From NCBI GenBank assembly GCA_963804165.1, contig CAWDPO010000017.1, positions 32,001 through 96,000 of the forward strand: a stretch of 64,000 bases of DNA. Direction: 5' to 3'. Numbering within the stretch: position 1 is the first letter of the stretch; every line of letters begins with the position of its first letter. The notes beneath the pieces were generated by a model that ran no database searches, was not told the DNA's origin, and was given only the letters and a program-made list of their open reading frames with translations. This stretch comes from an uncultured delta proteobacterium (GTDB taxonomy: Bacteria; Desulfobacterota; Binatia; UBA9968). A program made the translations under genes and the position numbers. Below, in pieces: positions 3,229 to 55,705 of this stretch.

Positions 3229-4578
3229 ATGCAGAACGGAGATCGCGATATCATCGTCATCGGCGCCGGAGGGTGCGGTCTGATGGCGGCGCTGGTGGCC
3301 GCAAAAAAGGGCGCGCGGGTGCTGTTGCTCGAGAAAACCGACAAGCCTGGCGGCGGCACGGCTTTTTCTTCCAAGGGTATTCGCGCCGCGGCGAGCCGCC
3401 GGCAGCGCGAGTTGAAGATCGCGGACAGCGCGGCTCTCTACGCAGAGGATATTTTGCGGCGGAACAACGGCGAGAGCGATGCCATTCTGACGCACCGGCT
3501 GGCGGAGAATTCGGGGAGGGTCGCCGACTTTCTCGCGGACGAAGCCGGCGTCGAATTCCAGATCGGCGAGTTCGCCTTCGGCCACAGCGCGCAGCGCTCC
3601 CACTCGTGGAAGGAAGACAAAACCATCACCGATTTTCTCTTCGCGGCGGTGGAGCAGGAAAAGAACATCGAGGTGCGCTTCTCCACCTCGGTGCGCACGC
3701 TCGAGCGGGACGCCGACGGTGCGGTGACCGGCGTAAAAACCGACGACGGCATTTTCAGCGCTCGAAAAATTATTCTAGCCTCCGGCGGATTCGGAGCGAG
3801 CGCGGAGCTGCTCTCCAGGTACATTCCCAAAGCCGTCGGCATTCCCTTCCCCGGCCATCATGGCAGCACCGGCGATGGCATCAAAATGGGCTTGGAGATC
3901 GGGGCGGCAGTGGAAAATATGGGCGGGTTCCAGCCCTATCCGGCCTACCTCGGTCCGGGAAAGCGCGCTGTGCCGCCGGAGGTGGCGCTGTCCGGCGGAA
4001 TCATGGTCGATGCCGGCGGAAAGCGTTTTGTCGATGAGACCCGATACCCGGGCGGCCTCGGCGTTAGAATGCTGGATCTACCCGGCAAGCAAGCCTACGA
4101 GATTTTCGATGAGCGGATTTTCCAATTGCATCGAGACGCGCCCGGGCTGAGAAGCTTGGGCCGTCTTTTCGATGCGGGGCTTTTGCTGCGAGCCGAAACC
4201 GCGGAGAAACTCGCGGGGAAAATCGGAATCGACGCCGATGGGCTGATGCGAACCATCCGCGAGTGCAACGCGCTCGCTGCGAGTCATGGAAAAGATGCTT
4301 TCGGCCGCGTTCTGCCGCAGCCTCTTGAGGCGCCCTATTATGGAATCAGAGTGACCGTGGCGCTGTACCATACCCAGGGCGGCTTGAAAGTGACCGCGGA
4401 CGGCCAAGTCATGCGCGCCGATGGGTCCATCATCTCTAACCTTTACGCCGGCGGCGGTGTCGCAGTAGGCGTGTCAGGCCAAGGGCTGGAAGGCTATTTG
4501 CCGGGAAACGGGTTATTGGCTTCTCTCGGTCTCGGCATGATAGCGGCGGAGCATGCAGTAACTACGTTGAGCGAGTGA
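3229..4578 (+). CDS. FAD-dependent oxidoreductase, fumarate reductase/flavocytochrome c flavoprotein-like
   Basis: IIVIGAGGCG dinucleotide-binding motif, ASGGF, STGDG, HTQGGL and NLYAGG. Confidence 0.85.
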   Translation: MQNGDRDIIVIGAGGCGLMAALVAAKKGARVLLLEKTDKPGGGTAFSSKGIRAAASRRQRELKIADSAALYAEDILRRNNGESDAILTHRLAENSGRVADFLADEAGVEFQIGEFAFGHSAQRSHSWKEDKTITDFLFAAVEQEKNIEVRFSTSVRTLERDADGAVTGVKTDDGIFSARKIILASGGFGASAELLSRYIPKAVGIPFPGHHGSTGDGIKMGLEIGAAVENMGGFQPYPAYLGPGKRAVPPEVALSGGIMVDAGGKRFVDETRYPGGLGVRMLDLPGKQAYEIFDERIFQLHRDAPGLRSLGRLFDAGLLLRAETAEKLAGKIGIDADGLMRTIRECNALAASHGKDAFGRVLPQPLEAPYYGIRVTVALYHTQGGLKVTADGQVMRADGSIISNLYAGGGVAVGVSGQGLEGYLPGNGLLASLGLGMIAAEHAVTTLSE

Positions 4579-4587
4579 GCGCATTGC

Positions 4588-5680
4588 ATGGACGAGACAA
4601 TCTACCGCGATCGACACGATTACGCTGCGCATTCCGTTGGACATCTGGGCTCCGGCGCCGATGGCTCAAGGCGTGCCGCGCACGCATGTTGAAAGCCTTT
4701 ATGTACGCGTGACGACCAGCGGCGGCGTGGTGGGTTGGGGTGAGTCCTTCGGCACAGGCCGTCCCATGGTTGTCGCAGCGTTCGACAACTGGATCAGGCG
4801 TCTCGCCGTTGGACAGAGCGCCACGGATGAGGAACTTGTCCCGCGCATAGAACGGATGCTGCTTTCATTGAGCCGCTCCGGTCCGCTGGCCCACGCGCTC
4901 GCGGGACTCGACATTGCGCTGTGGGACATTCGGGGAAAGCTTGCGGGTGTTCCGGTGTCGACGCTCCTTGGCGGCGCCAAGCGAACGCACGTCGAATGCT
5001 ATGCCTCGCTGCTGCAATATTACGGCAACCCGGAATACATCAAGCGCAACACCGCTCGCGCTCTCGAACGCGGCTATCGTCAGATCAAGCTGCATGAGCG
5101 CACTCCCGAGGCGGTCGCGGCCGCGCGCGAGGTGACGGGCCCGGACATTCCTCTTATGGTGGATACCAACTGCGCTTGGACAGCGGCCGAAGCTGAGACG
5201 GCCGTCGCGGCGATAGCGCCGTACAAACCGTTCTGGGTCGAGGAGCCGATCTATCCTCCGGAAGACTTCGAAGCGCTCGCCAAGCTGCGCACGATCACCG
5301 GCGTACCCATGGGGATCGGCGAGAACGCAACCAGCCTGCGTGATTTTCGCAGAATGGTCACCATCGGCAGGGCTGATTACATTCAGCCCAGCATCGTCAA
5401 ACTGGGCATCACCGCCATGGCAAAAGTAGCAGCCGAAGTCGAGCAAGCGGGCGCCCTCTGCGTACCGAACGCCTTTTATCTGGGACCGGCGTTTCTAGCG
5501 GTGTTGCATTGCCTCGCGGCAAAGGACAAAGATTCTCCGCTGGAGCGGATGTTTGCCGATTTTGGCGCTACTCCGTTCTCCAAGACCGTGCCTGTATTCA
5601 ACGGCGGAGTTGAAGTTCCGGAGGGCCCAGGTCTCGGTGTGGACCCGGAAGACGACCTGATTGCACAGTTCAGAGTGTAA
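4588..5680 (+). CDS. Mandelate racemase/muconate lactonizing enzyme family protein; frameshift near 4603
   Basis: GWGES, DIALWDIRGK, KLH, MVDTN, EEP and GE motifs. ATG 4588 joins TAIDTITLRIPLDIW if one base is removed. Confidence 0.85.
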
Positions 5681-5989: not shown

Positions 5990-6200
5990 AGATTCATCAA
6001 GGACCGTGCCCCTCCTTTCCCTGCACGATTGACTCTCGGCATTCGTTTCCTTTTAAGCCGTTAAACGATGCCTTTCATGCTGCCTTACATTGCTCAATCA
6101 AGAAGTGGCCCTGGTCCGAGCCGCAGCCGTCCCGCGTTTCAGCCGGCGGCCGCAGACGGTGATCGACGGCGGGGCTCGGGCGATCGTGGTGGAGAAGTGC

Positions 6201-6668
6201 TCAGTGGCGGCGGAGTTCTTCTATAAGGGCTTCAGAACGGGCAACGGCGTCTTGAGTGGGCTCATGACCGCTCTTACAGTGTGATGCGACTTCCTGTGAA
6301 TCTTTGGACAATGCGCGGGACTTTTCCTGCAGTCTGTGGCTCTGCTTTAGTAAATGTCTAGCATTTTTTTCATCATCATCAGAGGGACGAAATTCCAGGT
6401 TGCCTATTTGTTGAATGGACTCACCGCTATGCTGTTGCAGAAGTTCAAACACCTGGCGGCAAAGCGAACCCTCTCTAAACAACAGGGTGCCCATGTATGA
6501 AGAGCCTTGAAATTCCATCATTAGGTAACATGTTGTTAGCGGCTCAAACCGAGAACGAACAACGCTTCTGAGAATCCCAATTTCACCGATCAACTTTGCG
6601 TTGCCCTCACCCTCAGTTCTGATCCAGTTGGGTGGCCAGTCTATTGATGAACAGCGGCGGAGTTGCAT
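6201..6668 (-). CDS. Hypothetical protein
   Basis: 155-aa ORF with a GAGG RBS and a natural-looking sequence (WPPNW...GEIGIL); no family recognised. Confidence 0.55.
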   Translation of the reverse strand: MQLRRCSSIDWPPNWIRTEGEGNAKLIGEIGILRSVVRSRFEPLTTCYLMMEFQGSSYMGTLLFREGSLCRQVFELLQQHSGESIQQIGNLEFRPSDDDEKNARHLLKQSHRLQEKSRALSKDSQEVASHCKSGHEPTQDAVARSEALIEELRRH

Positions 6669-7165
6669 CGGGAGGACCTCATCTCTACATTCAAAAGCGT
6701 ACCGTCTTCTACGAAAACATAAGCAAACGTACGCCCGAATCTACGCTCATGGTTGATATGCTGGTTCGCCTCGTCGTACAGATCAGGACTGGGGTATTTA
6801 TAGGCCATGGAGCGAAGCGCGTATCGCTCTCGCGGAACGCCGCTTTCGTTCGAACGTTGATTCCGCCGATGACCCGGCCATCGATGTCACGCAGTGGCGT
6901 GGATACGGCGTGGTTGCTCTAGGGTCTTTTCCACTTGTGTCACCAATAACGTACACTTGAATAACGACAATCATCGGATCTTGGATTTTCAACTCTGCAA
7001 AAAATGTTCTTCGGCGTCGGGATCACGATCGTATTTTTTGTTTCGATTTCAAATCCGGCCGCAGACTTTTGGCGTATATTCTCGTGTAGGCTAAACGAAC
7101 GCTGCCTGCGAGGAAATAAGTTCTAGATCGGTTTCCGGCTCTTGACTGGCAGAATTGCGCCGGGC

Positions 7166-8458: not shown

Positions 8459-9230
8459 TCACCATTCCTTTCTTTTCTGGGCGACGTTTTTCCAGATTTG
8501 CGCAAACTCGGGATGGTCTCGTAAATAGCCGGCGTAGAGTTGTCCGAATCCAGACATCATCTCCGCTCTTCTCGGCGGCTCCGCAGGATACAAGCGGATA
8601 ACGAACCGGCCGCGCTCATCCGACAGGGCGAAGCAAGGTAATACCGGCGCTCCTAAAAGTTCGACGGTCTCAATCAGCCGACCATCGAGAAAAAACCTTC
8701 CGTAGAAAAATGGGATCTCGAACTGCGGCTCGCCTTGAGAAAATCCGCGCATGGATAGATGGACGACCTCGTTGCGCCCAAGCGCGCGCTCGATCTTTGC
8801 GAGTGCCTGCAGACCTTGGTGGCGATCGTCACCGTAGTTGATATGCTCCCAACGGGCATAGCTTCCTTCGCCCCAGCGCTCCGAGATATCATCGCCGCGC
8901 CAGCCGAAACCGGTGCGGTTCATGCGGTAGCCGCGCTCGGCCAACGCCGGGGCGACAACCCGCTCGAAGCCGTAAAAGTGCCCCGATAAGAGAAATGCGC
9001 CGCGCCCTTCACGCAGCGCCGCCTCGAGGTGTTCCTCGCCGTCGACGAGCACAAGCTCGTTATGCCGCTCCGCCCAGCCGGGCCAAGCCCACACCAGGGT
9101 ACGGCCCCATTTGCGGTAGATAAGGTGCTTTCTTCCTAGCTCCTCTAGCCGCGCCGGGTCATAGGATGAAGCCAACACGGTCCGAAAATATTTGAGCCGC
9201 GACTTGCGAATGAGTCCCGAGCGAGCCGCG
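8459..9230 (-). pseudogene. Lipid A lauroyl/LpxL-like acyltransferase lacking its 5' end
   Basis: VDGEEHLEAALREGRGAFLLSGHFYGFE motif. The frame is open up to about 9255 but has no convincing start and overlaps the end of the upstream methyltransferase. Confidence 0.65.
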
Positions 9231-9741
9231 AGGCAATGTCGGGGTCCTTCCCCGGTTCAAGATTTACAACCCGCGTAGGCTTCCAGTCGTCGATGTCATA
9301 ATCGTGAGCCACGATACGGGATCCTGGTTTGAGTTTCTGTAGCTTGGATCGAATCGCGTTGTTGAACCATTTGAACATGTAGAGTGTGACTACCGTTGCC
9401 TTGGAAATATCCGTTTGGGTCCCGTCTTCCGCGCGAAATTCGAGCAGATGGCTGACCCCTTCCTCTGTCGCCTTTTGTTTAGCCTCCGCTATGCGTTGCG
9501 GGTCCAAATCAACTCCGACGCCTCGCGTGCTATATTTTTTGGCGGCATGAATGAGTATCCGTCCATCGCCGCAGCCCAGGTCGTATATTACGTCGCCTTT
9601 CCTGACTCCAGCCAGTTCAAGCATACGCTCAACAACTGGCATCGTCGTGGGCACAAACGGGATGGGCTCTTGTGACCAGACCGTGGCGTTATTCAAAACG
9701 AATAGTAAAGCTAAGAATGATGCGATTTGCTTGAGCTTCAA
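9145..9741 (-). CDS. Class I SAM-dependent methyltransferase with a signal peptide; C-terminus after about 9235 probably chimeric
   Basis: PFVPTTMPVVERMLELA, IYDLGCGDGRI, ATVVTLY and LKPGSRIVAHDY motifs; hydrophobic leader ending WSQEP. Confidence 0.85.
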   Translation of the reverse strand: MKLKQIASFLALLFVLNNATVWSQEPIPFVPTTMPVVERMLELAGVRKGDVIYDLGCGDGRILIHAAKKYSTRGVGVDLDPQRIAEAKQKATEEGVSHLLEFRAEDGTQTDISKATVVTLYMFKWFNNAIRSKLQKLKPGSRIVAHDYDIDDWKPTRVVNLEPGKDPDIASRLARDSFASRGSNIFGPCWLHPMTRRG

Positions 9742-11276: not shown

Positions 11277-11360
11277 ACCTAACGCTATGCCGCTGAGCCG
11301 TCGTTAAGAAAGTGAATCCAAAATATCATACCTGATATCGGCTCCAGCGGCGAGTTAGCC
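11277..11360 (-). other. attC integron recombination site
   Basis: Minus strand reads GGCTAAC-tcgccgctggagccg...cggctcagcggcatagc-GTTAGGT, with complementary cores, L boxes and an extrahelical G; 84 bp. Confidence 0.75.
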
Positions 11361-11476
11361 GGTAAAAACCGCCCATCTAATCCTTTCTCTTTCTTATTTT
11401 TAGTTTCACTAAACTCACGAAAACCAAAAGGTCCAAAAGGCCTGACCAATTTTCTGCGCAATTTTCTGCCTGTGCC

Positions 11477-12301
11477 TCAGTCGCAGTTCTTAAGCTTAGA
11501 CTCCTGACAGCGCCGTGCCATCTCCTGCGCGGTTTCAATCTGCTCGGCTGTCATTTTTGCTGCAATTCTATCTCGCTTCTTTGTCGCCGTATCTCCGGAA
11601 TCGCGGCTCAATGCTGCAGCAGCGAGGTTAAACCACATAGACGCACGCACGAAGTCCTGCCGCACACCTCTCCCTTTGGTATACATCGCACCCAGATTGA
11701 CCTGGGCAAATTCGTTTCCCTGCGCTGCCGCCAGGCGATACCACTTCACGGCTTCCTGAAAATCCTGCGCCACCCCTTGCCCTTTTTCATACGCCACACC
11801 CAGACTGTACTCCCCCGGTGCGTATCCCTGCGCCGCCGCGAGGCGATACCACTTCACAGCCTGCTGATAATCCTGCCGCACGCCTTTTCCCTCAGCATAC
11901 ATCGACCCCAGCCTCGTCTGCGCCCATTCGTCGTCCTGCGCCGCTGCGAGGCCATACCACACAGTGGCTTCCTGAAAATCCTGCGGCACCCCTTGCCCTT
12001 TTTCATACGCCAGACCCAGACTATACTGCGCCGGGGTATTTCCCTGCGCTGCGGCGAGGCGATACCACTTTACAGCCTCCTGAAAATCCTGCGCCACGCC
12101 TTTCCCCTCTGCGTACATCAAACCCACCCTTCTCTGCGCCCAAGGGTGTCCCCGCTCGGCAAGCTGGCGAAAAAGTTTCATCGCCTGAACATAGTCGCCG
12201 CGCTCGTACACAGCGAGTGCGTCATCAAAAGGGTTTGATGCGGCAAAACTACTCGCACCGAGAAAATAAAGGATGGCGAGCAGAAGCAGGTTGGTTCTCA
12301 T
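11477..12301 (-). CDS. Exported Sel1-like repeat protein
   Basis: Signal peptide MRTNLLLLAILYFLGASSFA; five tandem 36-aa repeats of AQ..LG.MY..G.GV.QD..EAVKWYRLAAAQG. Confidence 0.9.
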   Translation of the reverse strand: MRTNLLLLAILYFLGASSFAASNPFDDALAVYERGDYVQAMKLFRQLAERGHPWAQRRVGLMYAEGKGVAQDFQEAVKWYRLAAAQGNTPAQYSLGLAYEKGQGVPQDFQEATVWYGLAAAQDDEWAQTRLGSMYAEGKGVRQDYQQAVKWYRLAAAQGYAPGEYSLGVAYEKGQGVAQDFQEAVKWYRLAAAQGNEFAQVNLGAMYTKGRGVRQDFVRASMWFNLAAAALSRDSGDTATKKRDRIAAKMTAEQIETAQEMARRCQESKLKNCD

Positions 12302-12325
12302 GGTGATTCCGATGCCGCTACGGGG

Positions 12326-12469
12326 GGCTGTTGAAAAAGGCCCATCTGCTTGTTGCGCTCGATCGCCTCGCTCCACCAACGTGTCAGTAAATACGCCTCG
12401 AGCCTGTCCTGAGCGAAGTCGAAGGATCGATTTCTCGCGCGCCTCGCATCGGGACGTTTTTGAACAGCC
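12326..12469. mobile_element. MITE-like element with GGCTGTTGAAAAA/TTTTTGAACAGCC terminal inverted repeats and a nested palindromic unit
   Basis: 13-bp imperfect terminal IRs. The internal unit agcctgtcctgagcgaagtcgaagg (12401-12425) is related to the repeat at 60843-60920. Confidence 0.65.
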
Positions 12470-12548
12470 TGGAATCAAATTTTTTACAGCCTGATGAATC
12501 GTGATATTCCTGATTTTCTGATCCAACCGCGAGTGATGTTGCATCACC

Positions 12549-13461
12549 CTACGGGTCCAATTGGAAGCGCCGCGAGGGAGGATATCCCGCCTCGAACTCC
12601 CATAGTTTCAGGCGCGGGACCGAAACGCCGCTGCAAACCTTCCGAATATTGATCAGCTCGGTGGGCCTTTTCCAGTCGCTCTTCGACTCGCAGGTGACTT
12701 GCGCGCAGGCGGTCTGCTTCAGCCAGGAGCACACTCTCAGTGGGCGGCCGGCGGCATCCTCCAGCTCGGTCACATACAAAATGCCGAGTTTGTCCTTGGC
12801 ATGCTCTAAATGCACGCCCGGCACCAGCGTGTAGAAGACGCCGCCAATCTCCAGCAACCTGAACACCCGCTCCACAAACCCGGACAAGTCTTCGGTATAG
12901 GAGAAACCGCCGAACACGTCGGTGATGATCTGGAATTTTCCAAGCTCTTCGGGCGAATACTGGCGCAGGCGCTTGCCGGAGAGATATCGCATACTGTCAT
13001 CGCCGAGCCTCGCAGCCTGCTCTCGCCACTTGTCCGTACGACGGTCCTCTATAGACATCGCGACCGCGCGCGCCTTGGCGCCAGACCGGCGGCATCTTTC
13101 AGCCGGCGGCGCGGCGTCTTCGGGTGCGTGGTAGTCCAGTATGGCCTGCCCGGCGCCCGCGCCGATATCCAGCCATCGGTCCGAGCTACCGAGCTTGCCG
13201 AGCACGTCGCAGAACCCGGAGGGAAGAAGCTCCGCGTAGTCCGAGAGCCCTCGGCCGGTGACGTAGCCGCGGGGAACATCGGCGCCCCGGCTCCGGTATA
13301 TTTTTTCCTGCCTGGTGAATTCCTCTTCGAGTCGCGGTTGAGCAGGTTCCTGTGACCAGCCAACTGCCAGCCCAAGCGCCTGCAGAACGATGACGATCAA
13401 GACGGCCAGGCCCGTTGCTGCGGATCTTCCTCGACGATTTGACTGAACCCATGACAATCAC
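12549..13461 (-). CDS. Exported class I methyltransferase-fold protein, copy A (one-base frameshift near 13424)
   Basis: WLDIGAGAGQAILDY and FQIITDVFGGFSY motifs; signal peptide ending GWSQEP. GTG start at 13461 by alignment with copy C. Confidence 0.75.
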
Positions 13462-13636
13462 TTCCTCCTCGCGTTGAAGAAAATCCCGTTGTCAATACCG
13501 TTTTCAAAGCTGTTCCAGGCATAATCTAGGCTGCCGGTCGCCGCAAGGCCGAAGGCCGAGGCGGTCAGTGCGCTGACGAAAGTGATTTGCGCGTCCCCCG
13601 TTGTCGTCCGGGTTGTCTTCGAACGCGCGCAGCGTC
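13458..13636 (-). pseudogene. Orphan 3' tail of the alpha/beta hydrolase at 15798..16775
   Basis: TLRAFEDNPDD...FVSALTASAFGLAATGSLDYAWNSFENGIDNGIFFNARRK*; stop overlaps the next start (GTGA). Confidence 0.85.
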
Positions 13637-13717
13637 GTTCGTCTTTTAATACGCAAACGTGGCGGCTGCGTCCACCCACAAATCGTCTTGGCCAAGCTAT
13701 GCGGCAGGTTTCATCGC

Positions 13718-14614
13718 CTAGGGCTCCAATTGGAATCGCCTGCCGGGAGGAGCCCCCGCCATGTACTCCACAAGGTTCGTGCGCGGAACCGCGACGTCGC
13801 TGCAAGCTTTGTGAATTTTTATCAACTGCGTGGGCTCGTCCCAGTCGCTCTTCGACTCGCAGGTGACTTTTGTGCACGTGGTCTGCTTCAGCCAGGAGCA
13901 CACGGTTATGGGACGGCTGGCTGCATTCACAAGCTCGGTCTTATACCAGGTACCGAGTTTATCCGTGCCATCCTCCAAGTGCACGGCTGGCAACACTGTG
14001 TAGAAGGCGCCGCCGATCTCCAGCAAGCCCAGTACCTTCTCGAGGAATCGGGATAAATTTTCCGTGTAAGTGAAGCCGCCGTACACGTCGGTGATAATCT
14101 GGAATTTTCCAAGCTCATCGCGTGAATGTTGGCTCAGACGTTTGCCGGCGAGATATCGCGTACGGTCGCCGAGGCTCCCGGCCTGCTGTTTCCACCTCTC
14201 TGTCCTGCGGTCCTCGATGGAGATCGCGACCACGCGCGCCTTGGGGCCGGATCCGCCGCACTTTTCAGGAGCCCCATCGCCTTGCGGTGCGTAGTAGTCG
14301 AGTATGGCCTGCCCCTCGCCCGCGCCGATATCCAGCCATCGGTCCGAGCTGCCGAGGCTTCCGAGCGCGTCGCAGAAGCCGGTGGGAAGAACCTCCGCGT
14401 AGTTCGACAGCCCTCGGTTCGCGGTGTAGCTCCCGGCACCCCGTCTGCGGTAGATTTTTTCCTGCTTGGTGAATTCCTCGTCGAGTCGCGGTTGAGCGGG
14501 TTCCTGTGACCAGCCAGCCCGCGTTTGTAGAAGGATGACGAATAGAACGGCCAAACGCATTCCACCGGTCTTCCAGCTTCTCACCGGCGATTTGACTGAA
14601 CGCAAGACAATCAC
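13718..14614 (-). CDS. Exported class I methyltransferase-fold protein, copy B
   Basis: WLDIGAGEGQAILDY; signal peptide ending AGWSQEP; same cysteine pattern as copies A and C. Confidence 0.8.
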   Translation of the reverse strand: MIVLRSVKSPVRSWKTGGMRLAVLFVILLQTRAGWSQEPAQPRLDEEFTKQEKIYRRRGAGSYTANRGLSNYAEVLPTGFCDALGSLGSSDRWLDIGAGEGQAILDYYAPQGDGAPEKCGGSGPKARVVAISIEDRRTERWKQQAGSLGDRTRYLAGKRLSQHSRDELGKFQIITDVYGGFTYTENLSRFLEKVLGLLEIGGAFYTVLPAVHLEDGTDKLGTWYKTELVNAASRPITVCSWLKQTTCTKVTCESKSDWDEPTQLIKIHKACSDVAVPRTNLVEYMAGAPPGRRFQLEP

Positions 14615-14805
14615 TTTCTCCTCGGGTTGAAAAAATTGCCGTTTTTGAAAGCGTTTTCGAAGCTGTTCAAAGCATAGTCTAGGCTGCCGGTGGCCACAAG
14701 CACAAAGGCGGAGGCGGTCAGTGCGCTGACGAGAGTGATTTGCGCGTCCTCGGCGTCGTCCGGGTTGTCTTCGAACGCGCGCAGCGTGCGCTCGTTCGGA
14801 TACTG
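14611..14805 (-). pseudogene. Second, more diverged orphan 3' tail of the alpha/beta hydrolase
   Basis: Open frame QYPNERTLRAFEDNPDDAEDAQITLVSALTASAFVLVATGSLDYALNSFENAFKNGNFFNPRRK* with the same GTGA overlap. Confidence 0.85.
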
Positions 14806-14889
14806 ATAAAGGTCAGACTTTTAGTTCCAGACTCTAGCTTTTTGTTTTGTTCATTCCGCACTGGCGCTTTGAATTCAACTCGACCACCC

Positions 14890-15801
14890 CTACTGCTCCA
14901 ATTGGAATCGCCGCCCGGGAGGATTTCCCGCCTCGTACTTCAATAGTTTCAAGCGCGGCAAAGAGACGTCGCTGCAAACCTTCCGAATATTGATGAGCTC
15001 GGTGGGCTCGCCCCAGTCGCTCTTCGACTCGCAAGTGATTTTCACGCAGGAAGCCTTCTTCAGCCAAGAGCACACTTTCACGTCGCGGCCGGCTGTATCC
15101 ATCAACTCGGTGAGATACCAGGTGGTGGGTTTGTCCTTGCCATCCTCTAAATGCACGCTTTGCACCACGGTGTAGAAGACGCCGCCGGTCTCCAGCAAGC
15201 TCAGCACCTTCTCCAGGAACTGGGACAAGTCTTCGGTGTAGGAAAAGCCGCCGTACACGTCAGTAATGATCTGGAATTTCCCAATCTCCCCGCCCGAGTA
15301 TTGCCGCAGGCGCTTGCCGGAGAGATATCGTATACGATCATTGCCGAGGCGCGCGGCCCGCTGTTGCCACTTGTCCGTCCGGCGGTCCTCGATGGACATC
15401 GCGACTGCCCACGCTCTGCCCCCCAACCCGGCGCACTTTTCAGCCGGGGTCGCGTCGTCTGCGGGTGTATAGTAGTCCAGTATCGCCTGCCCGTCGCCCG
15501 CTCCAACATCCAGCCATCGGTCCGAGCTGCCCAGGCTGCCGAGCGCGTCGCAGAAGCCGGAGGGAAGAAGTGCCGCGTAGTCCGAAAGCCCTCGGCCGGT
15601 GACGTAGCCACGGGGAACATCGGCGCCCCGGCTCCGGTATATTTTTTCCTGCCTGGTGAATTCCTCTTCGAGTCGCGGTTGAGCAGGTTCCTGTGACCAG
15701 CCAACTGCCAGCCCAAGCGCCTGCAGAACGATGACGATCAAGACGGCCAGGCCCGTTGCTGCGGTCTTCCTCGACGATTTGACTGAACCCATGACAATCA
15801 C
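14890..15801 (-). CDS. Exported class I methyltransferase-fold protein, copy C
   Basis: WLDVGAGDGQAILDY; signal peptide; translationally coupled to the hydrolase (GTGA at 15798-15801). Confidence 0.8.
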   Translation of the reverse strand: MIVMGSVKSSRKTAATGLAVLIVIVLQALGLAVGWSQEPAQPRLEEEFTRQEKIYRSRGADVPRGYVTGRGLSDYAALLPSGFCDALGSLGSSDRWLDVGAGDGQAILDYYTPADDATPAEKCAGLGGRAWAVAMSIEDRRTDKWQQRAARLGNDRIRYLSGKRLRQYSGGEIGKFQIITDVYGGFSYTEDLSQFLEKVLSLLETGGVFYTVVQSVHLEDGKDKPTTWYLTELMDTAGRDVKVCSWLKKASCVKITCESKSDWGEPTELINIRKVCSDVSLPRLKLLKYEAGNPPGRRFQLEQ

Positions 15802-16775
15802 TTCCTCCTCGCGTTGAAGAAAATCCCGTTGTCAATACCGTTTTCAAAGCTGTTCCAGGCATAATCTAGGCTGCCGGTCGCCGCAAGGCCGAAGGCCGAG
15901 GCGGTCAGCGCGCTGACGAACGCAATTTGCGCTTCCTCTGTGTCATCGGGGTTGTCTTCGAATGCGCGCAGCGTGTGCTCGTTCGGATACTGTGCATCCT
16001 GGTGGACGGTGTCCCGTATCGATATCTCTCCGACCGCGCCCGGAATAAACCGGTAAAATTGCCCGCGGTTGCGGGTGGGCCAGATGTCCTCGTCCGCACC
16101 GATCACCATTACCGGAACTGTGATTCGCTTCAGCAACTGCGGCAATTGCCGGCCGATCCCGGCGGGATCGAGTAGGACACCGCCCACCGCGGGGGCGCTT
16201 TCCCCCAACGCAACGGCGACGGCAGTCGCGCCGAATGAGTGGCCCGCGAGAATGATCCTGTCCGCGTCTATGCGATCGTCGACGAGCTGCGGCGTCCGAT
16301 GAATGGCGTCGACGAGTTTGGCGAGGGTTCTGCCGTTGGCAATCCACGGGCCGCGGTTGGGCAAGTCGATGGCAAGGCTATGCATGCCCCAGGAGGCCAA
16401 GTGCATCGCTTGAAAGGCATGGTCCTCCTTGGAATTGTCTTGACCGTGCAACACGACCACCAGCGGCGCCTTGCGGGCCGCCGGGCACAGATATAAGTTC
16501 GCTTCCACCGTGAGACCGGAAGGCAGGGGAATCTCCAGATCTCTGCGCTCGATGGTGGCAAAGGGCCCGCGCAACCTGAATTGCGCTACGTCGGGCTTGC
16601 CGGACAATAGATAGCGCTGGAGCTCGGCCGGGCTTGCGGCCTTTATCGGCGTGGCTTCGGTCGCCGGAAACCGGCGAGCACAGCCGGCCGAATACGCCGT
16701 GAGGGCGATCAGCAGAAGGGCTGGAATGCGAAAACCTGATCGGCTGATCGCGGATTCATTTCGTTCGTCCCGCAC
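15798..16775 (-). CDS. Lipoprotein alpha/beta hydrolase (lipase/chlorophyllase/PETase-like fold)
   Basis: Lipobox ALLLIALTAYSAGC; VVLHG; nucleophile elbow GHSFG; GADED; late His (VHQDAQ). GTG 16775 follows AGGAG. Confidence 0.8.
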   Translation of the reverse strand: MRDERNESAISRSGFRIPALLLIALTAYSAGCARRFPATEATPIKAASPAELQRYLLSGKPDVAQFRLRGPFATIERRDLEIPLPSGLTVEANLYLCPAARKAPLVVVLHGQDNSKEDHAFQAMHLASWGMHSLAIDLPNRGPWIANGRTLAKLVDAIHRTPQLVDDRIDADRIILAGHSFGATAVAVALGESAPAVGGVLLDPAGIGRQLPQLLKRITVPVMVIGADEDIWPTRNRGQFYRFIPGAVGEISIRDTVHQDAQYPNEHTLRAFEDNPDDTEEAQIAFVSALTASAFGLAATGSLDYAWNSFENGIDNGIFFNARRK

Positions 16776-16789
16776 AGGCACTCCTGAAT

Positions 16790-16960
16790 TCAACTCCACA
16801 ACTTCTTGCTCGCGATCGCCGCGCCGTCGCGCAGGGCGCGGCACTTGGCTTAGGCGATTTGTGGATGGACGCCGCCGCCCAGACTACCGTCGGTGCTGAT
16901 CATCAGCGTGTTTTCGCCCGTGGAGCTCTGGATGAGATATGGCACGTCGGTGGTGCTGGT
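16790..16960 (-). pseudogene. Degenerate 3' fragment of a MetE-like gene (paralog of 54500..55705)
   Basis: About 55 bp identical to 54496-54550, then increasing divergence including an in-frame stop. Confidence 0.8.
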
Positions 16961-17110
16961 CGGTAGGCGGGTGGCGGGCTACGGCTCTTTCGTCAGAACA
17001 CCTAGGCCGAAATTCAGCACACGTTAGAGAATTTCCACGCTGGTCGGTATTCCTATTAGCACGCTGAAGGGCGATTGCTACCGTCGGAACAACCGCCCCT
17101 CCCGTATCAT

Positions 17111-18796
17111 CTATGTAGTAACTACATCGATGATCGCCGGCTTGCCGCTTCGATTGGCTTCGAGGCCGCGCTTCAGCGCATCCTGGACCTTCTCCGGATC
17201 CGTCACCGTCTCGCCGTAACCGCCGACGGATTCGGCGACCTTCACGAAGTCGGGGGCGTTGATGTGGGTGCCGTGGTAGAGATCGATTTCCGCGGCGATC
17301 CCGTCCGGATACATTTTCTGGTGCATGCCCTGCATCGCGGCGTATTTCTTGTTGTTGAAGATTACCGCCATGATCGGCAGCTTGTAATCGCGCGCCGCGC
17401 CGAGGCTGCCGAGCGCCGGGTTGTACAGGAACGCGCCGTCACCGATCAAGGTCACGACCTGCCGTTCCGGCTTCCCCAGCTTGATCCCGAGCGAAAGACC
17501 TAATCCCTGTCCGAGACCGCCCTGGCGGGTGAACAGGCACTGCGGGTCGTTCCATACGAGGTGTTGCCGCAGGGTGGCCGTGTGCGTGGTGACCTCGTCG
17601 ATGTAGATCGTATCTTTGGGCATCACGGCGTTCAGTGACGCGCACAGCCACACCGGATCGATCGGTGTTTTCTTGCGCGCCGCCGCCTGCGCCGCATTCC
17701 TTTTCTCGACGAGCGCGTCGTGCGCCGCGGCGAGCTCCTTGCGTCGTGCTTCCACCGCTGCCTTATCGACCGTCGCCGCATTCGCCAGGTCGCGCAGCGT
17801 CTGCGCGGCATTGCCTTCCAGGTACATGTCGGCCTGATGGCTTTGGTAAACCATCGCCGAGTTGTGCGGCGCTTCGTCCACCATGGCGACCACGGCCTTG
17901 GGCGGGCGGTTGCTCGGCGGATACCAGGGCGCGCGTGCGCGGACGACGATCGCGAGGTCCATGTCGTTCCAGAACGGTTTGATGTCGGTTCCCTGGTAGA
18001 GCGGATGGTCCTTGGGGAAGTTGGCGAACAGAGCGCCGGGCTTCTCGACCAGCGGCAGAGCGAACTTCTCGCACAGCGCCACCAGGGCCTCGTAGGTCTC
18101 GACCTCCTGGCCGGCGCCCTCGGTGAGCACGACCGGGCGCTTCGCCTTGGAGAGCTGGGCGGCGAGTTTTTCGATATCTTCCGGCGCTGTCAGCACGCGC
18201 GGCGCCGGCGGAACCGTGCGCGGATTAGTGGGAGGCGTCCAGCCAGCCATCAGCGTTTCCGTCGAGACGGAGAGATAGGTCGGTCCGGTCGGTTGCCGCT
18301 GCGCCAGTTCGCCGGCGCGGATAATGCTTTCATAGAGCGTGTAGACGCTGCCCGCGACCGAGGAGTACTTGACGATCGAATCGACCAGGTTGGTCGTGCC
18401 GCTGACGATGCTCAAGTTGTTCATCCACTGGGCCCCCGGATCGAACTCCGGCTGCTCGCCGTAGGTCATCGACTCGCCGGAGATCACCACCATTGGGACC
18501 CCGGCGACAAAAGCGCCGTGCATCCCCATGGCACCCTGCAGCAGGCCGGCGCCCGCGTGCAGCAACACGGCCTGCATCCGCCCCGTGGCCAGCGTGTAGC
18601 CCGCCGCGATGTCGACGGCGAGTGTTTCGTGCCACACATCCAGGAGCTTGGGACCGTCCTTTTTCCAGTGGATCTGGTCGGCCATGGCTTCCCACACGGG
18701 CGCCCATTCGGTGCCTGGCGAGGACAAGATGTATTCGACTCCGAGCTTACGAAACGCTTCGACTAAGGCGCTGCCGCCGTCGAACTGATTTTTCAT
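17111..18796 (-). CDS. Thiamine pyrophosphate-dependent enzyme (acetolactate synthase/benzoylformate decarboxylase family)
   Basis: SPGTE, HETLAV, and the TPP-binding motif GDGAFLYN...FNN. Confidence 0.9.
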   Translation of the reverse strand: MKNQFDGGSALVEAFRKLGVEYILSSPGTEWAPVWEAMADQIHWKKDGPKLLDVWHETLAVDIAAGYTLATGRMQAVLLHAGAGLLQGAMGMHGAFVAGVPMVVISGESMTYGEQPEFDPGAQWMNNLSIVSGTTNLVDSIVKYSSVAGSVYTLYESIIRAGELAQRQPTGPTYLSVSTETLMAGWTPPTNPRTVPPAPRVLTAPEDIEKLAAQLSKAKRPVVLTEGAGQEVETYEALVALCEKFALPLVEKPGALFANFPKDHPLYQGTDIKPFWNDMDLAIVVRARAPWYPPSNRPPKAVVAMVDEAPHNSAMVYQSHQADMYLEGNAAQTLRDLANAATVDKAAVEARRKELAAAHDALVEKRNAAQAAARKKTPIDPVWLCASLNAVMPKDTIYIDEVTTHTATLRQHLVWNDPQCLFTRQGGLGQGLGLSLGIKLGKPERQVVTLIGDGAFLYNPALGSLGAARDYKLPIMAVIFNNKKYAAMQGMHQKMYPDGIAAEIDLYHGTHINAPDFVKVAESVGGYGETVTDPEKVQDALKRGLEANRSGKPAIIDVVTT

Positions 18797-37457: not shown

Positions 37458-37779
37458 CAAACCTTCCTGCTGCTCGAGCGAAATGCTTGCGGCGACCAAA
37501 AGCTTCCTGCGGCTCGACAAAATTGTTTTCGATGCAAGGTCAACTTGACACCGATGAACCTAGCACGCTTTCGCAATTCCGAAAACGTGGGAACGAGCGG
37601 CGTCCGCAGAAATGTTTGCATTCAATCGCTGCGCCGTCGCGCAGGGCGCAGAGCTTTGATGGCGATTTGCGGATGGACAGGGCCGCCCACGCCGCAGTCG
37701 GTCGGGCAATGGTGGCGAGTCGTCGATGACGGTGTTTGTTCAGCAGTCGTCTTCGGTTCTTGCTCTCAACGATTAAGAC

Positions 37780-54192: not shown

Positions 54193-54499
54193 TGAAGTTC
54201 TCCCGCGCTGAAATTGAGCCCGTTATATTCAGGCCGCGACGAACCTGTCAATGAAATTCCACTAGGTCTTAAGGATCGTGGATGCCTTGGAAAGCAGCGC
54301 TCGGCCCGCTGGGGTTCGATCGCTCAACAAGTTTTCGGATATCTATCAGACTCGGCTCGAATAGATGAATCGACCGATCTAGGTGCGCGTTGTGCACCGG
54401 GGCAGCCCACTCCGCTTCGGTAAAAAGCAAGTCCAGTGTAAAACTTTTACCTGTAGACTTTCTTCCTTTTGTTTCGCTCCCGCACACGCACTTTTGAAT

Positions 54500-55705
54500 T
54501 CAACTCCACAACTTCTTGCTCGCGATCGCCGCGCCGTCGCGCAGGGCGCGCAGCTTGGCCCAGGCGATTTGCGGATGGACGCGGCCGCCTAGGCCGCAGT
54601 CGGTGCCGGCGATGACGTTTTCCCGGCCGACGATTTCAGCGAACGTGATGATGCGATCGGCCACCAGTTCCGGGTGCTCGACGAGATCGGTGGAGTGGCT
54701 GACGACGCCGGGGATGAGGATTTTTCCGGCGGGGAGTTTCACGTCGCGCCAGACTTTGAATTCATGTTCGTGACGGACGTTGCCGGCTTCGACCAAGTAC
54801 GCCTGGGCGTTGACACGGAGCATGACGTCGACGATGTCGCGCAGCGGAAAATCGGTGGTGTGCGGACCATGCCAGCTGCCCCAGCAGATGTGATAGCGCA
54901 CGCGATCGACCGGGATGCCTTCGAGGGCGTGATTCAGAATTTCAACCCGCTGCGACGCGTAGCGCCGGTACTCCTCGACGCTTGGCTGGGGATCGAGCAT
55001 GTCCCAGGCGCCGGGAAGACCGGGGTCGTCGAGCTGGAGGATGAAGCCGGCGTCGACGATGGCGCGATACTCTTCGCGCATCGCATCGGCAATCGCTTCC
55101 AAGAATTTCTCGGTGGTCGCATAGTAACTGTTCTGATCGCGGCAGAACATCTCCAGGCTGCCGGGCGCGATGGCGCTGACGAAGGCCTCTTCGACGCCGG
55201 CGGCGTTGGCGGCGAGCTTCAAGTTGACGAGCTGGTCGCGCAGAAACTGTTGCGCGGTGTAAGCGATCGGGCCGGTGCAGGTCGGGCGCAGCGCGGCGGT
55301 GCTGGGCGCACCCAAGCCGGTGTCGGCGTAAAATTCGGCGAACTCGCGCTGCTCCCAGCGCACGCCGACGATGCGCATCGGCGCGCCGGGTTTAGCAGTA
55401 TCGGGTGCAATGGTCTGTGCCGAAGTCGGCGTGAAGCCGGAGACGCGGTCGAAGATGTAATTGCCCCAAGCGCCCCGGTCGGTGGACGCGCGCATGGGTT
55501 TGCCGAACTCGCCGTCGTTGGGAATATCGATGCCCATGTCTTTCTGCGTGCGCACGACTTCACCGATGGCCGAGCGCAGCCGCGTTTGCAGCGCCGCTTC
55601 GTCCTCCGCCGTGACGGTTTTTTTCGCCCACATGGCGCGCAAGTCCGCCGGCCGCGGCAGGCTGCCGACATGGGTGGTAAGAATGCGTTCAGTGCTTCGT
55701 TTCAT
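54500..55705 (-). CDS. Cobalamin-independent methionine synthase II (MetE-like, single barrel) family protein
   Basis: TTHVGSLPRP, DGEFGK, QLDDP, Zn ligands HICWG, and GTDCG. Confidence 0.9.
   Translation of the reverse strand: MKRSTERILTTHVGSLPRPADLRAMWAKKTVTAEDEAALQTRLRSAIGEVVRTQKDMGIDIPNDGEFGKPMRASTDRGAWGNYIFDRVSGFTPTSAQTIAPDTAKPGAPMRIVGVRWEQREFAEFYADTGLGAPSTAALRPTCTGPIAYTAQQFLRDQLVNLKLAANAAGVEEAFVSAIAPGSLEMFCRDQNSYYATTEKFLEAIADAMREEYRAIVDAGFILQLDDPGLPGAWDMLDPQPSVEEYRRYASQRVEILNHALEGIPVDRVRYHICWGSWHGPHTTDFPLRDIVDVMLRVNAQAYLVEAGNVRHEHEFKVWRDVKLPAGKILIPGVVSHSTDLVEHPELVADRIITFAEIVGRENVIAGTDCGLGGRVHPQIAWAKLRALRDGAAIASKKLWS

Follow-up and report, generated by a model that had tools for sequence, protein, structure and literature searches.

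Does a complete hydrolase gene, followed by several copies of a partner gene that each stand behind an orphan end of the hydrolase, form a toxin-immunity system or something else? This question is raised by an array in a stretch of 64,000 nucleotides (nt) from an uncultured delta proteobacterium (Binatia, UBA9968; assembly GCA_963804165.1, contig CAWDPO010000017.1, positions 32,001 to 96,000), hereafter the window. The array consists of a lipoprotein hydrolase gene, three genes for exported proteins with a methyltransferase (MT) fold, two hydrolase tails and a gene for an exported Sel1-repeat protein. An initial annotation, made from the letters of the window, had compared it with polymorphic toxins and with the Tle/Tli lipase pairs belonging to type VI secretion systems (T6SS). 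We consider it probable that the genes belong to a conserved three-part envelope module, in which the array grew by unit duplication, hydrolase deletion and gene conversion, and that the tails are relics of this process and not toxin tips.

Specifically, the array would be part of a chromosomal envelope operon of a soil bacterium, of a kind typical of Candidatus Binatia, encoding three kinds of extracytoplasmic protein: a lipoprotein esterase, disulfide-bonded MT-fold proteins and a Sel1 scaffold. The array would represent three old paralogous units of esterase and MT gene, and in units 2 and 3 the esterase gene would have been deleted save its last ~60 codons. These relics would persist because they hold the Shine-Dalgarno site and the start context of the MT gene, and the same conserved block would also serve as a substrate for gene conversion between the units.

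Organization of the array

The initial annotation had described a lipobox-bearing GHSFG hydrolase followed by three MT-fold copies and a Sel1 gene, and this array is real. All of it lies on the minus strand, in the order hydrolase, MT-fold gene 1 (MT1), tail 1, MT2, tail 2, MT3 and Sel1 gene. By a repeat finder and self-BLAST, it resolves into three tandem units of ~1170 nt with 76-87% nucleotide identity, far above chance. The features are given below in the direction of transcription.

16755..16896, minus strand: 3'-end fragment of a MetE-like gene with the short GAGTTGAATTCA... intergenic element, directly upstream of the hydrolase start and running into it
15798..16775, minus strand: lipoprotein alpha/beta serine hydrolase, cutinase/polyesterase-like, 325 amino acids (aa) from GTG 16775 (Pfam, PDB sequence matches, AlphaFold2 (AF2) model and Foldseek)
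14890..15792, minus strand: MT1, 300 aa if read from the conserved ATG 15792, the frame being open from GTG 15801 as well (AF2 model and Foldseek; start by junction comparison)
14806..14889, minus strand: spacer with a second copy of the GAGTTGAATTCA... intergenic element
14611..14805, minus strand: tail 1, relic of hydrolase codons 262-325, open, without a start codon, Trp307 changed to Leu
13718..14614, minus strand: MT2, start at GTG 14614 or at TTG 14605, the position of the conserved ATG
13661..13698, plus strand: 38-nt piece of the MetE-like 3' fragment in inverted orientation, with 86-87% identity to the reverse of 16844-16879 and 54552-54589
~13458..13642, minus strand: tail 2, frameshifted relic of the hydrolase 3' end, its 3' part inside the conversion tract
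13270..13568, minus strand: gene-conversion tract, identical to 15611-15908 save one extra base at 13424
12549..13457, minus strand: MT3, open from TTG 13457 (GGAGG 6 nt upstream)
11477..12301, minus strand: Sel1-repeat protein of 274 aa, exported, bearing a signal peptide of its own (Pfam Sel1)

Hydrolase and MT gene had been thought to be coupled by a GTGA overlap preserved at each unit. In 28 Binatia-type hydrolase-MT junctions, however, GTGA was found at three, the others reading GTAA, GTAG, ATAA, ATAG or ATGA, and an in-frame ATG lay 9 nt beyond the GTGA position at 21. At the start of MT1, GGAGG is 2 nt from the GTG and 11 nt from the conserved ATG. Given this spacing and the conservation of the ATG, MT1 most likely starts at 15792, 5 nt past the hydrolase stop. 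In MT3, neither the GTG of GTGA nor the canonical ATG 13452 is in frame, owing to the extra base at 13424. The true junction most likely reads as a stop, 5 nt and an ATG, and not as an overlap.

A repeated piece was also observed in and beyond the array, made up of the last ~30 codons of a MetE-like (Meth_synt_2) gene and the GAGTTGAATTCA... intergenic stretch. It occurs at 16755-16896, 54463-54606, 37625-37702, 14870-14881 and 13661-13698, and its intact copy ends the Meth_synt_2 gene 54503-55705; over 144 nt, the fragment at 16755-16896 has 87% identity to 54463-54606, which covers the 3' end of that gene and sequence downstream of it. Within the array, one fragment immediately precedes the hydrolase, another follows MT1 and a third, in inverted orientation, follows MT2. 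The GAGTTGAATTCA motif has three exact and two one-mismatch sites against 0.33 expected. These repeats may be marks of old rearrangement junctions.

Hydrolase tails

The initial annotation had described both tails as the last 60-65 hydrolase codons, and that at 14611-14805 as an open, amino-acid-diverged variant. This is correct for tail 1, which has 64 open codons with 80% aa identity to the hydrolase end, stop codons just upstream and no start codon. Tail 2 does not fit the description, since one base too many at 13602 and a gap of 5 nt leave its last 46 codons alone in the hydrolase frame. The catalytic residues Ser180, Asp228 and His258 all lie outside the tail region (residues 262-325). 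In the structural model, the 64-residue tail starts after His258 and consists of the final long helix, a pair of short helices and the final strand, with no catalytic residue and no separate domain.

To follow the tails in relatives, an nhmmer search (E ≤ 0.01) was made with a profile built on the final 60 nt of the hydrolase gene. It covered, for each of the 40 MT copies lacking a full hydrolase, 450 nt of upstream sequence. A remnant abutted the MT start in 24 of them; the 16 misses include six Burkholderiales-type copies and two with too little upstream sequence. Arrays with several MT copies and hydrolase tails do recur in other genomes, as the initial annotation had envisaged. Their remnants measure 135 codons (locus L017, frameshifted), 64 (window tail 1), 39 and 33 (L009, in-frame stop), and so on down to about a dozen and about six, and stops or frameshifts are present in L009, L029 and window tail 2. 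The piece retained in every remnant is the ribosome-binding site of the MT gene, and in the smallest ones TTTTTCAACGCGAGGAGGAA alone is left before the MT start. Since the decay proceeds from the 5' side and the ribosome-binding site is always kept, the tails are relics and not maintained cassettes.

Tail 1 was further compared with complete hydrolases. From the resident gene, it differs by 18 synonymous and 14 non-synonymous changes, with a ratio of non-synonymous to synonymous divergence (dN/dS, omega) of 0.16. It is 86% identical in nucleotides to hydrolases of other genomes (L021, L009) as against 83% to the resident one, and it has lost Trp307, which is invariant across the hydrolase family. 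Its dN to 20 outgroup hydrolases is 0.137, against 0.088 for the resident gene, at similar dS (0.58 vs 0.67). By its omega, most of the divergence of tail 1 from the resident gene arose under constraint. We conclude that tail 1 is the remainder of a second hydrolase copy, functional at one time and cut short fairly recently. The spacer 14806-14889, with the same GAGTTGAATTCA element as precedes the intact hydrolase gene, is consistent with this. A translated and selected tail 1, which the omega of 0.16 could indicate, is unlikely, given the missing start codon, the loss of Trp307, the raised dN and the decay of tails in relatives. The tails probably make no functional protein; they are decaying relics of lost hydrolase copies, not orphan toxin tips.

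Hydrolase

The hydrolase open reading frame (ORF) extends over 15798-16844, and AGGAG lies 5 nt upstream of GTG 16775, the likely start. The protein begins with a signal peptide and the lipobox LTAYSAG-C, with the cysteine at +1 as in bacterial lipoproteins; Cys32 is invariant in 29/29 aligned homologues and Gly31 nearly so. All three residues of the triad, Ser180 (GHSFG), Asp228 and His258, are invariant in the same 29. Among Pfam models, Abhydrolase_6 scored 36.3 bits (cut-off 26.3) and PETase 21.8 bits, under its cut-off of 28, and PAF-AH_p_II was also weaker. The best PDB sequence matches were cutinases and polyethylene terephthalate hydrolases (E ~1e-7). The AF2 model (pLDDT 82.9) was matched by Foldseek to PETase, leaf-compost cutinase (LCC) and Streptomyces exfoliatus lipase with TMt ~0.75, and carries the triad on a cutinase/polyesterase-like fold. 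Taken as one part of the whole reading, the hydrolase is probably an outer-membrane-type lipoprotein serine esterase with a cutinase/polyesterase fold.

The hydrolase is the more conserved member of the pair. Over 190 pairs from 20 loci, its mean identity was 81% vs 70% for the adjoining MT protein, with the hydrolase ahead in 187 pairs, and omega was 0.23 vs 0.44, the MT partner evolving about twice as fast. The hydrolase tree is shallow, and it disagrees with the clades to which the neighbouring MT genes belong (10 label changes vs a minimum of 4, with weak support). This discordance suggests that the order of the MT paralogues was reshuffled by recombination in the conserved junction block.

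Methyltransferase-fold family

All three MT-fold copies carry RWLD[VI]GAGxGQ behind an N-terminal hydrophobic leader. The AF2 model of MT1 (pLDDT 88.9) was matched by Foldseek to class I S-adenosylmethionine (SAM) methyltransferases with probability 1.0 and a TM of 0.33-0.45 of the query. At least 500 PDB entries matched at E ≤ 0.001, the top listed being SAM-dependent methyltransferases or MT-fold relatives (RdmB, CmoB), and the predicted structure contains the seven-strand Rossmann-like core of class I. On the window copies, no Pfam methyltransferase model exceeded its cut-off (best, Methyltransf_23 with 17.4 bits vs 27; copy 2 without a match), NCBIfam gave no match for the MT-fold copies, and the PDB sequence search with MT1 returned best E values of 0.45 and 0.62, which are meaningless.

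The family comprises 2079 clusters (E ≤ 0.001, 90% collection), or 646 representatives at 50% clustering. We aligned 36 diverse full-length members, 22-79% identical to MT1, of which any single methyltransferase model matched at most 8 at E ≤ 0.01. Nine residues are invariant in all 36, namely R70, Y75, D98, G100, G102, D181, Y188, P295 and R297. Of the 88 copies from the loci described below, orphans included, 87 have retained the full set of nine, MT3 being one of them, and the motif I residues D98, G100 and G102 are present in all 88. The ribose-binding acidic position 138 (E138) is E or D in 24/36, the others having Q, A, K, R, I, S or T.

A hydrophobic leader was found in 34/36 members, with positive charges before it and acidic residues after it. 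The cysteines, which the initial annotation had called conserved, are conserved in subfamilies only, and there always in pairs: Cys252/276 are both present in 16 members and both absent in 20, Cys244/257 in 8 and 28, and Cys84/123 in 4 and 32, with one cysteine alone in none. This pairing, together with the leader and its flanking charges, speaks for three disulfides and for an extracytoplasmic protein. Export of the MT-fold protein is probable, and the extracytoplasmic location first assigned to it, very probably the right one, agrees with both the leaders and the strictly paired cysteines.

Since the cofactor-type pocket is invariant in 87/88 copies, the MT-fold proteins would serve for the binding of a small ligand or for catalysis, and would not only clamp the esterase. 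We tentatively favour a catalytic or ligand-binding role on the residue pattern; a non-catalytic partner (inhibitor, immunity or chaperone) is almost as probable, and the remainder falls to some other role. The proposal of an enzyme-partner system is supported at the genetic level. The nine invariant residues suit a working pocket better than a pure inhibitor. As a guess, the two invariant arginines would suit a carboxylate substrate, and, equally as a guess, an esterase partner would suit methyl-ester removal. Complex prediction for the mature hydrolase (33-325) and mature MT1 (38-303), run with custom alignments and without controls, scored 0.00 and counts neither way on binding.

A second, unrelated exported methyltransferase of 198 aa is encoded at 9145-9741 on the minus strand (Methyltransf_25, 5e-11; NCBIfam archaeal protein-lysine N-methyltransferase, 4e-37, under the model cut-off). 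Its signal peptide ends in VWSQEP, and the same WSQEP follows the leaders of the three MT-fold copies (GWSQEPAQP). Its end is overlapped by an ORF of 239 aa at 8459-9178 (minus strand) with weak LpxL-like acyltransferase matches.

Link to the Sel1 protein

The strongest link in the operon, overlooked by the initial annotation, is given by MT::Sel1 fusion proteins. The Sel1 protein of the window is a member of its family by a wide score (Pfam Sel1, 162.2 bits against a cut-off of 30.7, 1.2e-48, five stretches). In a search for longer relatives of MT1, 12 protein clusters of ~550 aa (P0390-P0401) proved to be MT::Sel1 fusions. In P0390, residues 1-302 are 76% identical to window MT3, and residues 301-550 match residues 25-274 of the window Sel1 protein with 80% identity, a span that corresponds to the mature protein without its signal peptide. 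Continuous fusion ORFs were located at L012 3754-5415, L014 3390-4967, L027 6804-8441, L035 7923-9449 and L039 7811-9451, always at the last MT position of the array, and L012 consists of hydrolase and MT::Sel1 only. Because the fusion lacks the second signal peptide, MT and Sel1 share a compartment and very probably work together. No MT::hydrolase fusion appeared in the search for longer forms, such an absence being weak evidence, and Pfam found no hydrolase fusion in 9 long MT family members.

A long ORF (11477-12547) reads through the spacer of 247 nt between MT3 and Sel1 (12302-12548), and its upstream end is almost certainly not where Sel1 really starts. The length of this spacer differs among relatives, some of which, like the fusions, have no spacer at all.

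Occurrence in other genomes

For relatives, one genome per species was scanned with an alignment of 8 close MT members, giving 70 loci, all of which were searched with the three window proteins. Most of them are in metagenome-assembled genomes (MAGs) of Candidatus Binatia at 60-78% identity, many titled 'uncultured delta proteobacterium', and the remaining ones are in Burkholderiales/Betaproteobacteria MAGs at ~50% identity. Together with the three of the window, the loci contain 90 full-length MT copies, which were sorted by what lies directly upstream, window copy 2 being filed under tail.

Full hydrolase on the same strand: 48/90 (one, in L061, fragmented)
Recognisable hydrolase tail: 9/90
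Another MT gene: 9/90
Sel1 gene: 4/90
None of these by tblastn: 16/90
Contig end: 4/90

The adjacency of hydrolase and partner thus recurs as the initial annotation had anticipated, and it does so in the Burkholderiales MAGs too; in the Burkholderiales-type group of MT copies, a full hydrolase stands upstream in 21/27 rows. In the Burkholderiales-type loci, the hydrolase-MT pair lies alone among unrelated genes that differ by locus. In Binatia, the usual order is hydrolase, MT and Sel1 amid metabolic neighbours, and the thiamine pyrophosphate (TPP) enzyme and PrpD-like genes that flank the window operon recur there. Several long contigs (0.3-1 Mb) elsewhere have one hydrolase and about three MT copies close together. 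Families of T6SS, Rhs, phage and transposase proteins were absent from 41 window ORFs, 57 ORFs of Burkholderiales loci and 74 ORFs of Binatia loci.

Two loci in genomes titled delta proteobacterium or Thermodesulfobacteriota, L061 (5033-5652, MT at 6001-6870) and L064, have a Burkholderiales-type MT ~48% identical to MT1, which indicates that the two MT types are not simply split by phylum; in L061, the MT gene lies behind a fragmented hydrolase gene. In L030, an orphan MT copy that belongs to the MT2 clade has a TIR_2 protein (3958-4809; Pfam 4e-20) encoded ~1.2 kb upstream, probably by coincidence.

Age and divergence of the MT copies

In a quick LG+G4 tree of 88 MT copies, MT1, MT2 and MT3 of the window do not group. 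MT2 falls in a clade of 10 rows (support 99), no copy of which follows a full hydrolase, MT3 is sister to the copy of L008 (support 96), and MT1 is placed near copies that follow full hydrolases. The window copies are 67-77% identical in protein, with dS of 0.33-0.59 and omega of 0.35-0.44. Purifying selection acts on all MT copies. The rate of the MT gene, about twice that of the hydrolase, is in line with the diversifying partner assumed at the outset. The separate clades and the dS values mark the triplication as old. A recent triplication in situ was considered and rejected on the same two grounds.

A recent event of another kind is also recorded. The 298-nt tract common to units 1 and 3 (15611-15908 and 13270-13568) is identical save the extra base 13424, with flanks of 74-92%, and covers the tail end, the Shine-Dalgarno site, the start and the first ~60 MT codons. 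This tract is a recent gene conversion between units 1 and 3.

Proposed function and alternative explanations

In the envelope module that we propose, the MT-fold proteins would be working ligand-binding or catalytic subunits, as the invariance of the cofactor-type pocket suggests. They would act in complex with the Sel1 protein and share an envelope substrate with the esterase; in the simplest case, a methyl ester would be made and removed. The MT paralogues may provide different specificities. The furthest extension of this proposal is that Sec-exported, disulfide-bonded methyltransferases work outside the cytoplasm as paralogous writers on a Sel1 scaffold, with the lipoprotein esterase as eraser and envelope methyl esters as the product. 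We regard this extension as speculative and rather unlikely. If true, it would be the first case of a methylation system in the bacterial periplasm, which SAM or another methyl donor would then have to reach.

Several points weigh against the proposal. To our knowledge, no source of SAM is known in the bacterial periplasm. Our literature search met no precedent for a bacterial exported or periplasmic methyltransferase or for an immunity protein of methyltransferase fold; the sole secreted case among the matches listed is the eukaryotic METTL9, which is reportedly a secreted methyltransferase, according to a preprint. No Pfam methyltransferase model passes its cut-off on the window copies, and the ribose-binding residue is acidic in only 24 of the 36 members. 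Export is deduced from sequence features and cysteine covariation, and the cysteine pairs are clade-nested, perhaps reflecting as few as three gain events. The MT tree was a quick one with many deep forks unsupported. For tail 1, the omega of 0.16 places most of the divergence under constraint, so that a translated, selected tail is an alternative, if an unlikely one. Finally, the excess of MT over hydrolase copies, the faster evolution of the MT genes and the orphan copies also suit an inhibitor or immunity role.

The last point belongs to the effector-immunity explanation, which is like the Tle/Tli or polymorphic-toxin layout proposed initially and which we judge improbable. Here the esterase would be a membrane-attacking toxin released from the surface or in vesicles, and the MT-fold protein, perhaps with Sel1, would provide periplasmic immunity; extra and orphan MT copies would guard against the esterases of rivals, and the modules of tail and MT gene would be displaced or spare cassettes. 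Such a system would account for a partner that is encoded immediately downstream, exported, present in several copies and faster-evolving than the hydrolase, for the many orphan MT copies without a hydrolase, for the origin of tail 1 in another hydrolase lineage than the resident gene, and for the change of the hydrolase-adjacent MT clade among genomes. In addition, Sel1-like repeat proteins are known as immunity partners of a phospholipase, PA5088 binding PldB through its repeats (PMC13736854). The hydrolase itself, however, fits this explanation poorly, since it has a lipobox with an invariant cysteine, carries a Sec/lipoprotein signal, and is the conserved rather than the polymorphic member of the pair. 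The tails carry no catalytic residues, decay to nothing in relatives and derive from the same domain, so they are not alternative toxins. No VgrG, Hcp, PAAR, Rhs or other delivery genes and no mobile genes occur in the 172 neighbouring ORFs scanned, and the operon is embedded in conserved metabolic synteny with the TPP enzyme and PrpD. Moreover, an inhibitor would not need the D-x-G-x-G loop and the pocket residues that 87/88 copies have kept.

Slightly less probable, in our judgement, is a folding helper, in which the MT-fold protein would be a non-catalytic, membrane-tethered steric chaperone or activator of the esterase in the periplasm, like the lipase-specific foldases. The start of its gene 5 nt past the hydrolase stop, a hydrophobic N-terminal segment of ~22 residues that could remain as an anchor, and a pair conserved across two phyla in otherwise unrelated contexts would all be expected of such a helper. 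No Pfam chaperone family matched, however, and the three old paralogues per esterase, the distant orphans, the invariant pocket and the Sel1 fusion would all stay unexplained.

A strain-collapse artefact, as the initial annotation had feared, with variants of one locus wrongly placed in tandem, is hardly credible: the source is probably a MAG and the single-base insertions at 13424 and 13602 could be sequence errors, but the MT copies are too different in protein and belong to different old clades, each of which has members in other genomes, including contigs of 0.3-1 Mb with several close copies, and the unit junctions differ from one another.

With the envelope module as the preferred explanation, the array itself is ordinary, being made of tandem paralogues, gene relics and gene conversion, and it serves as a warning that a layout of full gene, orphan ends and partner need not mean a toxin system. 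The interesting part is the gene set, namely an uncharacterised exported MT-fold family that is linked to an esterase in two phyla and fused to Sel1 in some genomes. Should the MT fold be catalytic there, SAM chemistry could no longer be assumed to be restricted to the cytoplasm in bacteria; should it be non-catalytic, it would plainly exemplify an enzyme fold that has been given a new use as a partner subunit.

Other features of the window

The region 21000-51500 is dense in genes of the aromatic or heterocycle catabolism type, including six Amidohydro_2 genes, two LigB-type dioxygenase ORFs, a Rieske ring hydroxylase, two meta-cleavage-type alpha/beta hydrolases, a LysR regulator and several solute-binding proteins. 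Rfam had no match in the whole window. A promoter and terminator scan of 11300-17200 found none on the minus strand and fewer sites than in shuffled sequences, and is uninformative on the operon limits.

Comparison with known systems

T6SS Tle/Tli pairs, including PldB with its Sel1-like immunity protein, are similar in having a lipolytic-type hydrolase, tandem exported partners and Sel1 in the operon (PMC13736854). The present hydrolase differs in having its own lipoprotein signal and no T6SS neighbours, and the present partner in its conserved cofactor-type pocket. A Tle effector is encoded without a Sec signal beside vgrG, hcp, PAAR or other T6SS genes, which is not the case here, whereas a periplasmic partner is suggested here too by the signal peptides and paired cysteines. 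Furthermore, the hydrolase matches no Tle family in Pfam, going by the models that we take to cover Tle.

The orphan toxin-tip/immunity cassettes of contact-dependent inhibition (CDI) and Rhs systems likewise show a full gene and then 3' fragments, each with a partner, and a conserved junction block that recombines. In the window, by contrast, the fragments are of the same domain as the resident gene, lack active-site residues and decay, and there is no large delivery protein. Complete alternative toxin domains were not found in the fragments, nor were the fragments intact across genomes.

LipA/Lif operons combine an exported lipolytic enzyme with a closely coupled gene for a membrane-tethered periplasmic partner. 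The likeness is one of gene order only, because the MT-fold partner has another fold, occurs in multiple copies and as orphans, and is Sel1-fused in relatives. It is not placed in the Lif family by Pfam, which gives weak methyltransferase models alone, and its fold is that of a methyltransferase.

Compared with class I SAM methyltransferases (best Foldseek matches Rv0187, NmbA and cyclopropane fatty acid synthase), the MT-fold protein shares the seven-strand core, at probability 1.0, the invariant D-x-G-x-G motif I and an acidic residue ending strand 4. It differs by a query-normalised TM of 0.33-0.45, a predicted C-terminal beta-rich, disulfide-bearing extension and signal peptides, as well as by the missing Pfam match at cut-off and a ribose-binding acidic residue that the family does not conserve.

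CheR/CheB and BioC/BioH are cytoplasmic pairs of a methyl-ester writer and eraser, and some CheR proteins have tetratricopeptide repeat (TPR) fusions. All three proteins of the present module carry export signals, unlike these pairs, and no sequence relationship was found beyond the fold. The likeness lies in a methyltransferase fold that is genetically paired with an esterase and, in some genomes, fused to TPR-like repeats.

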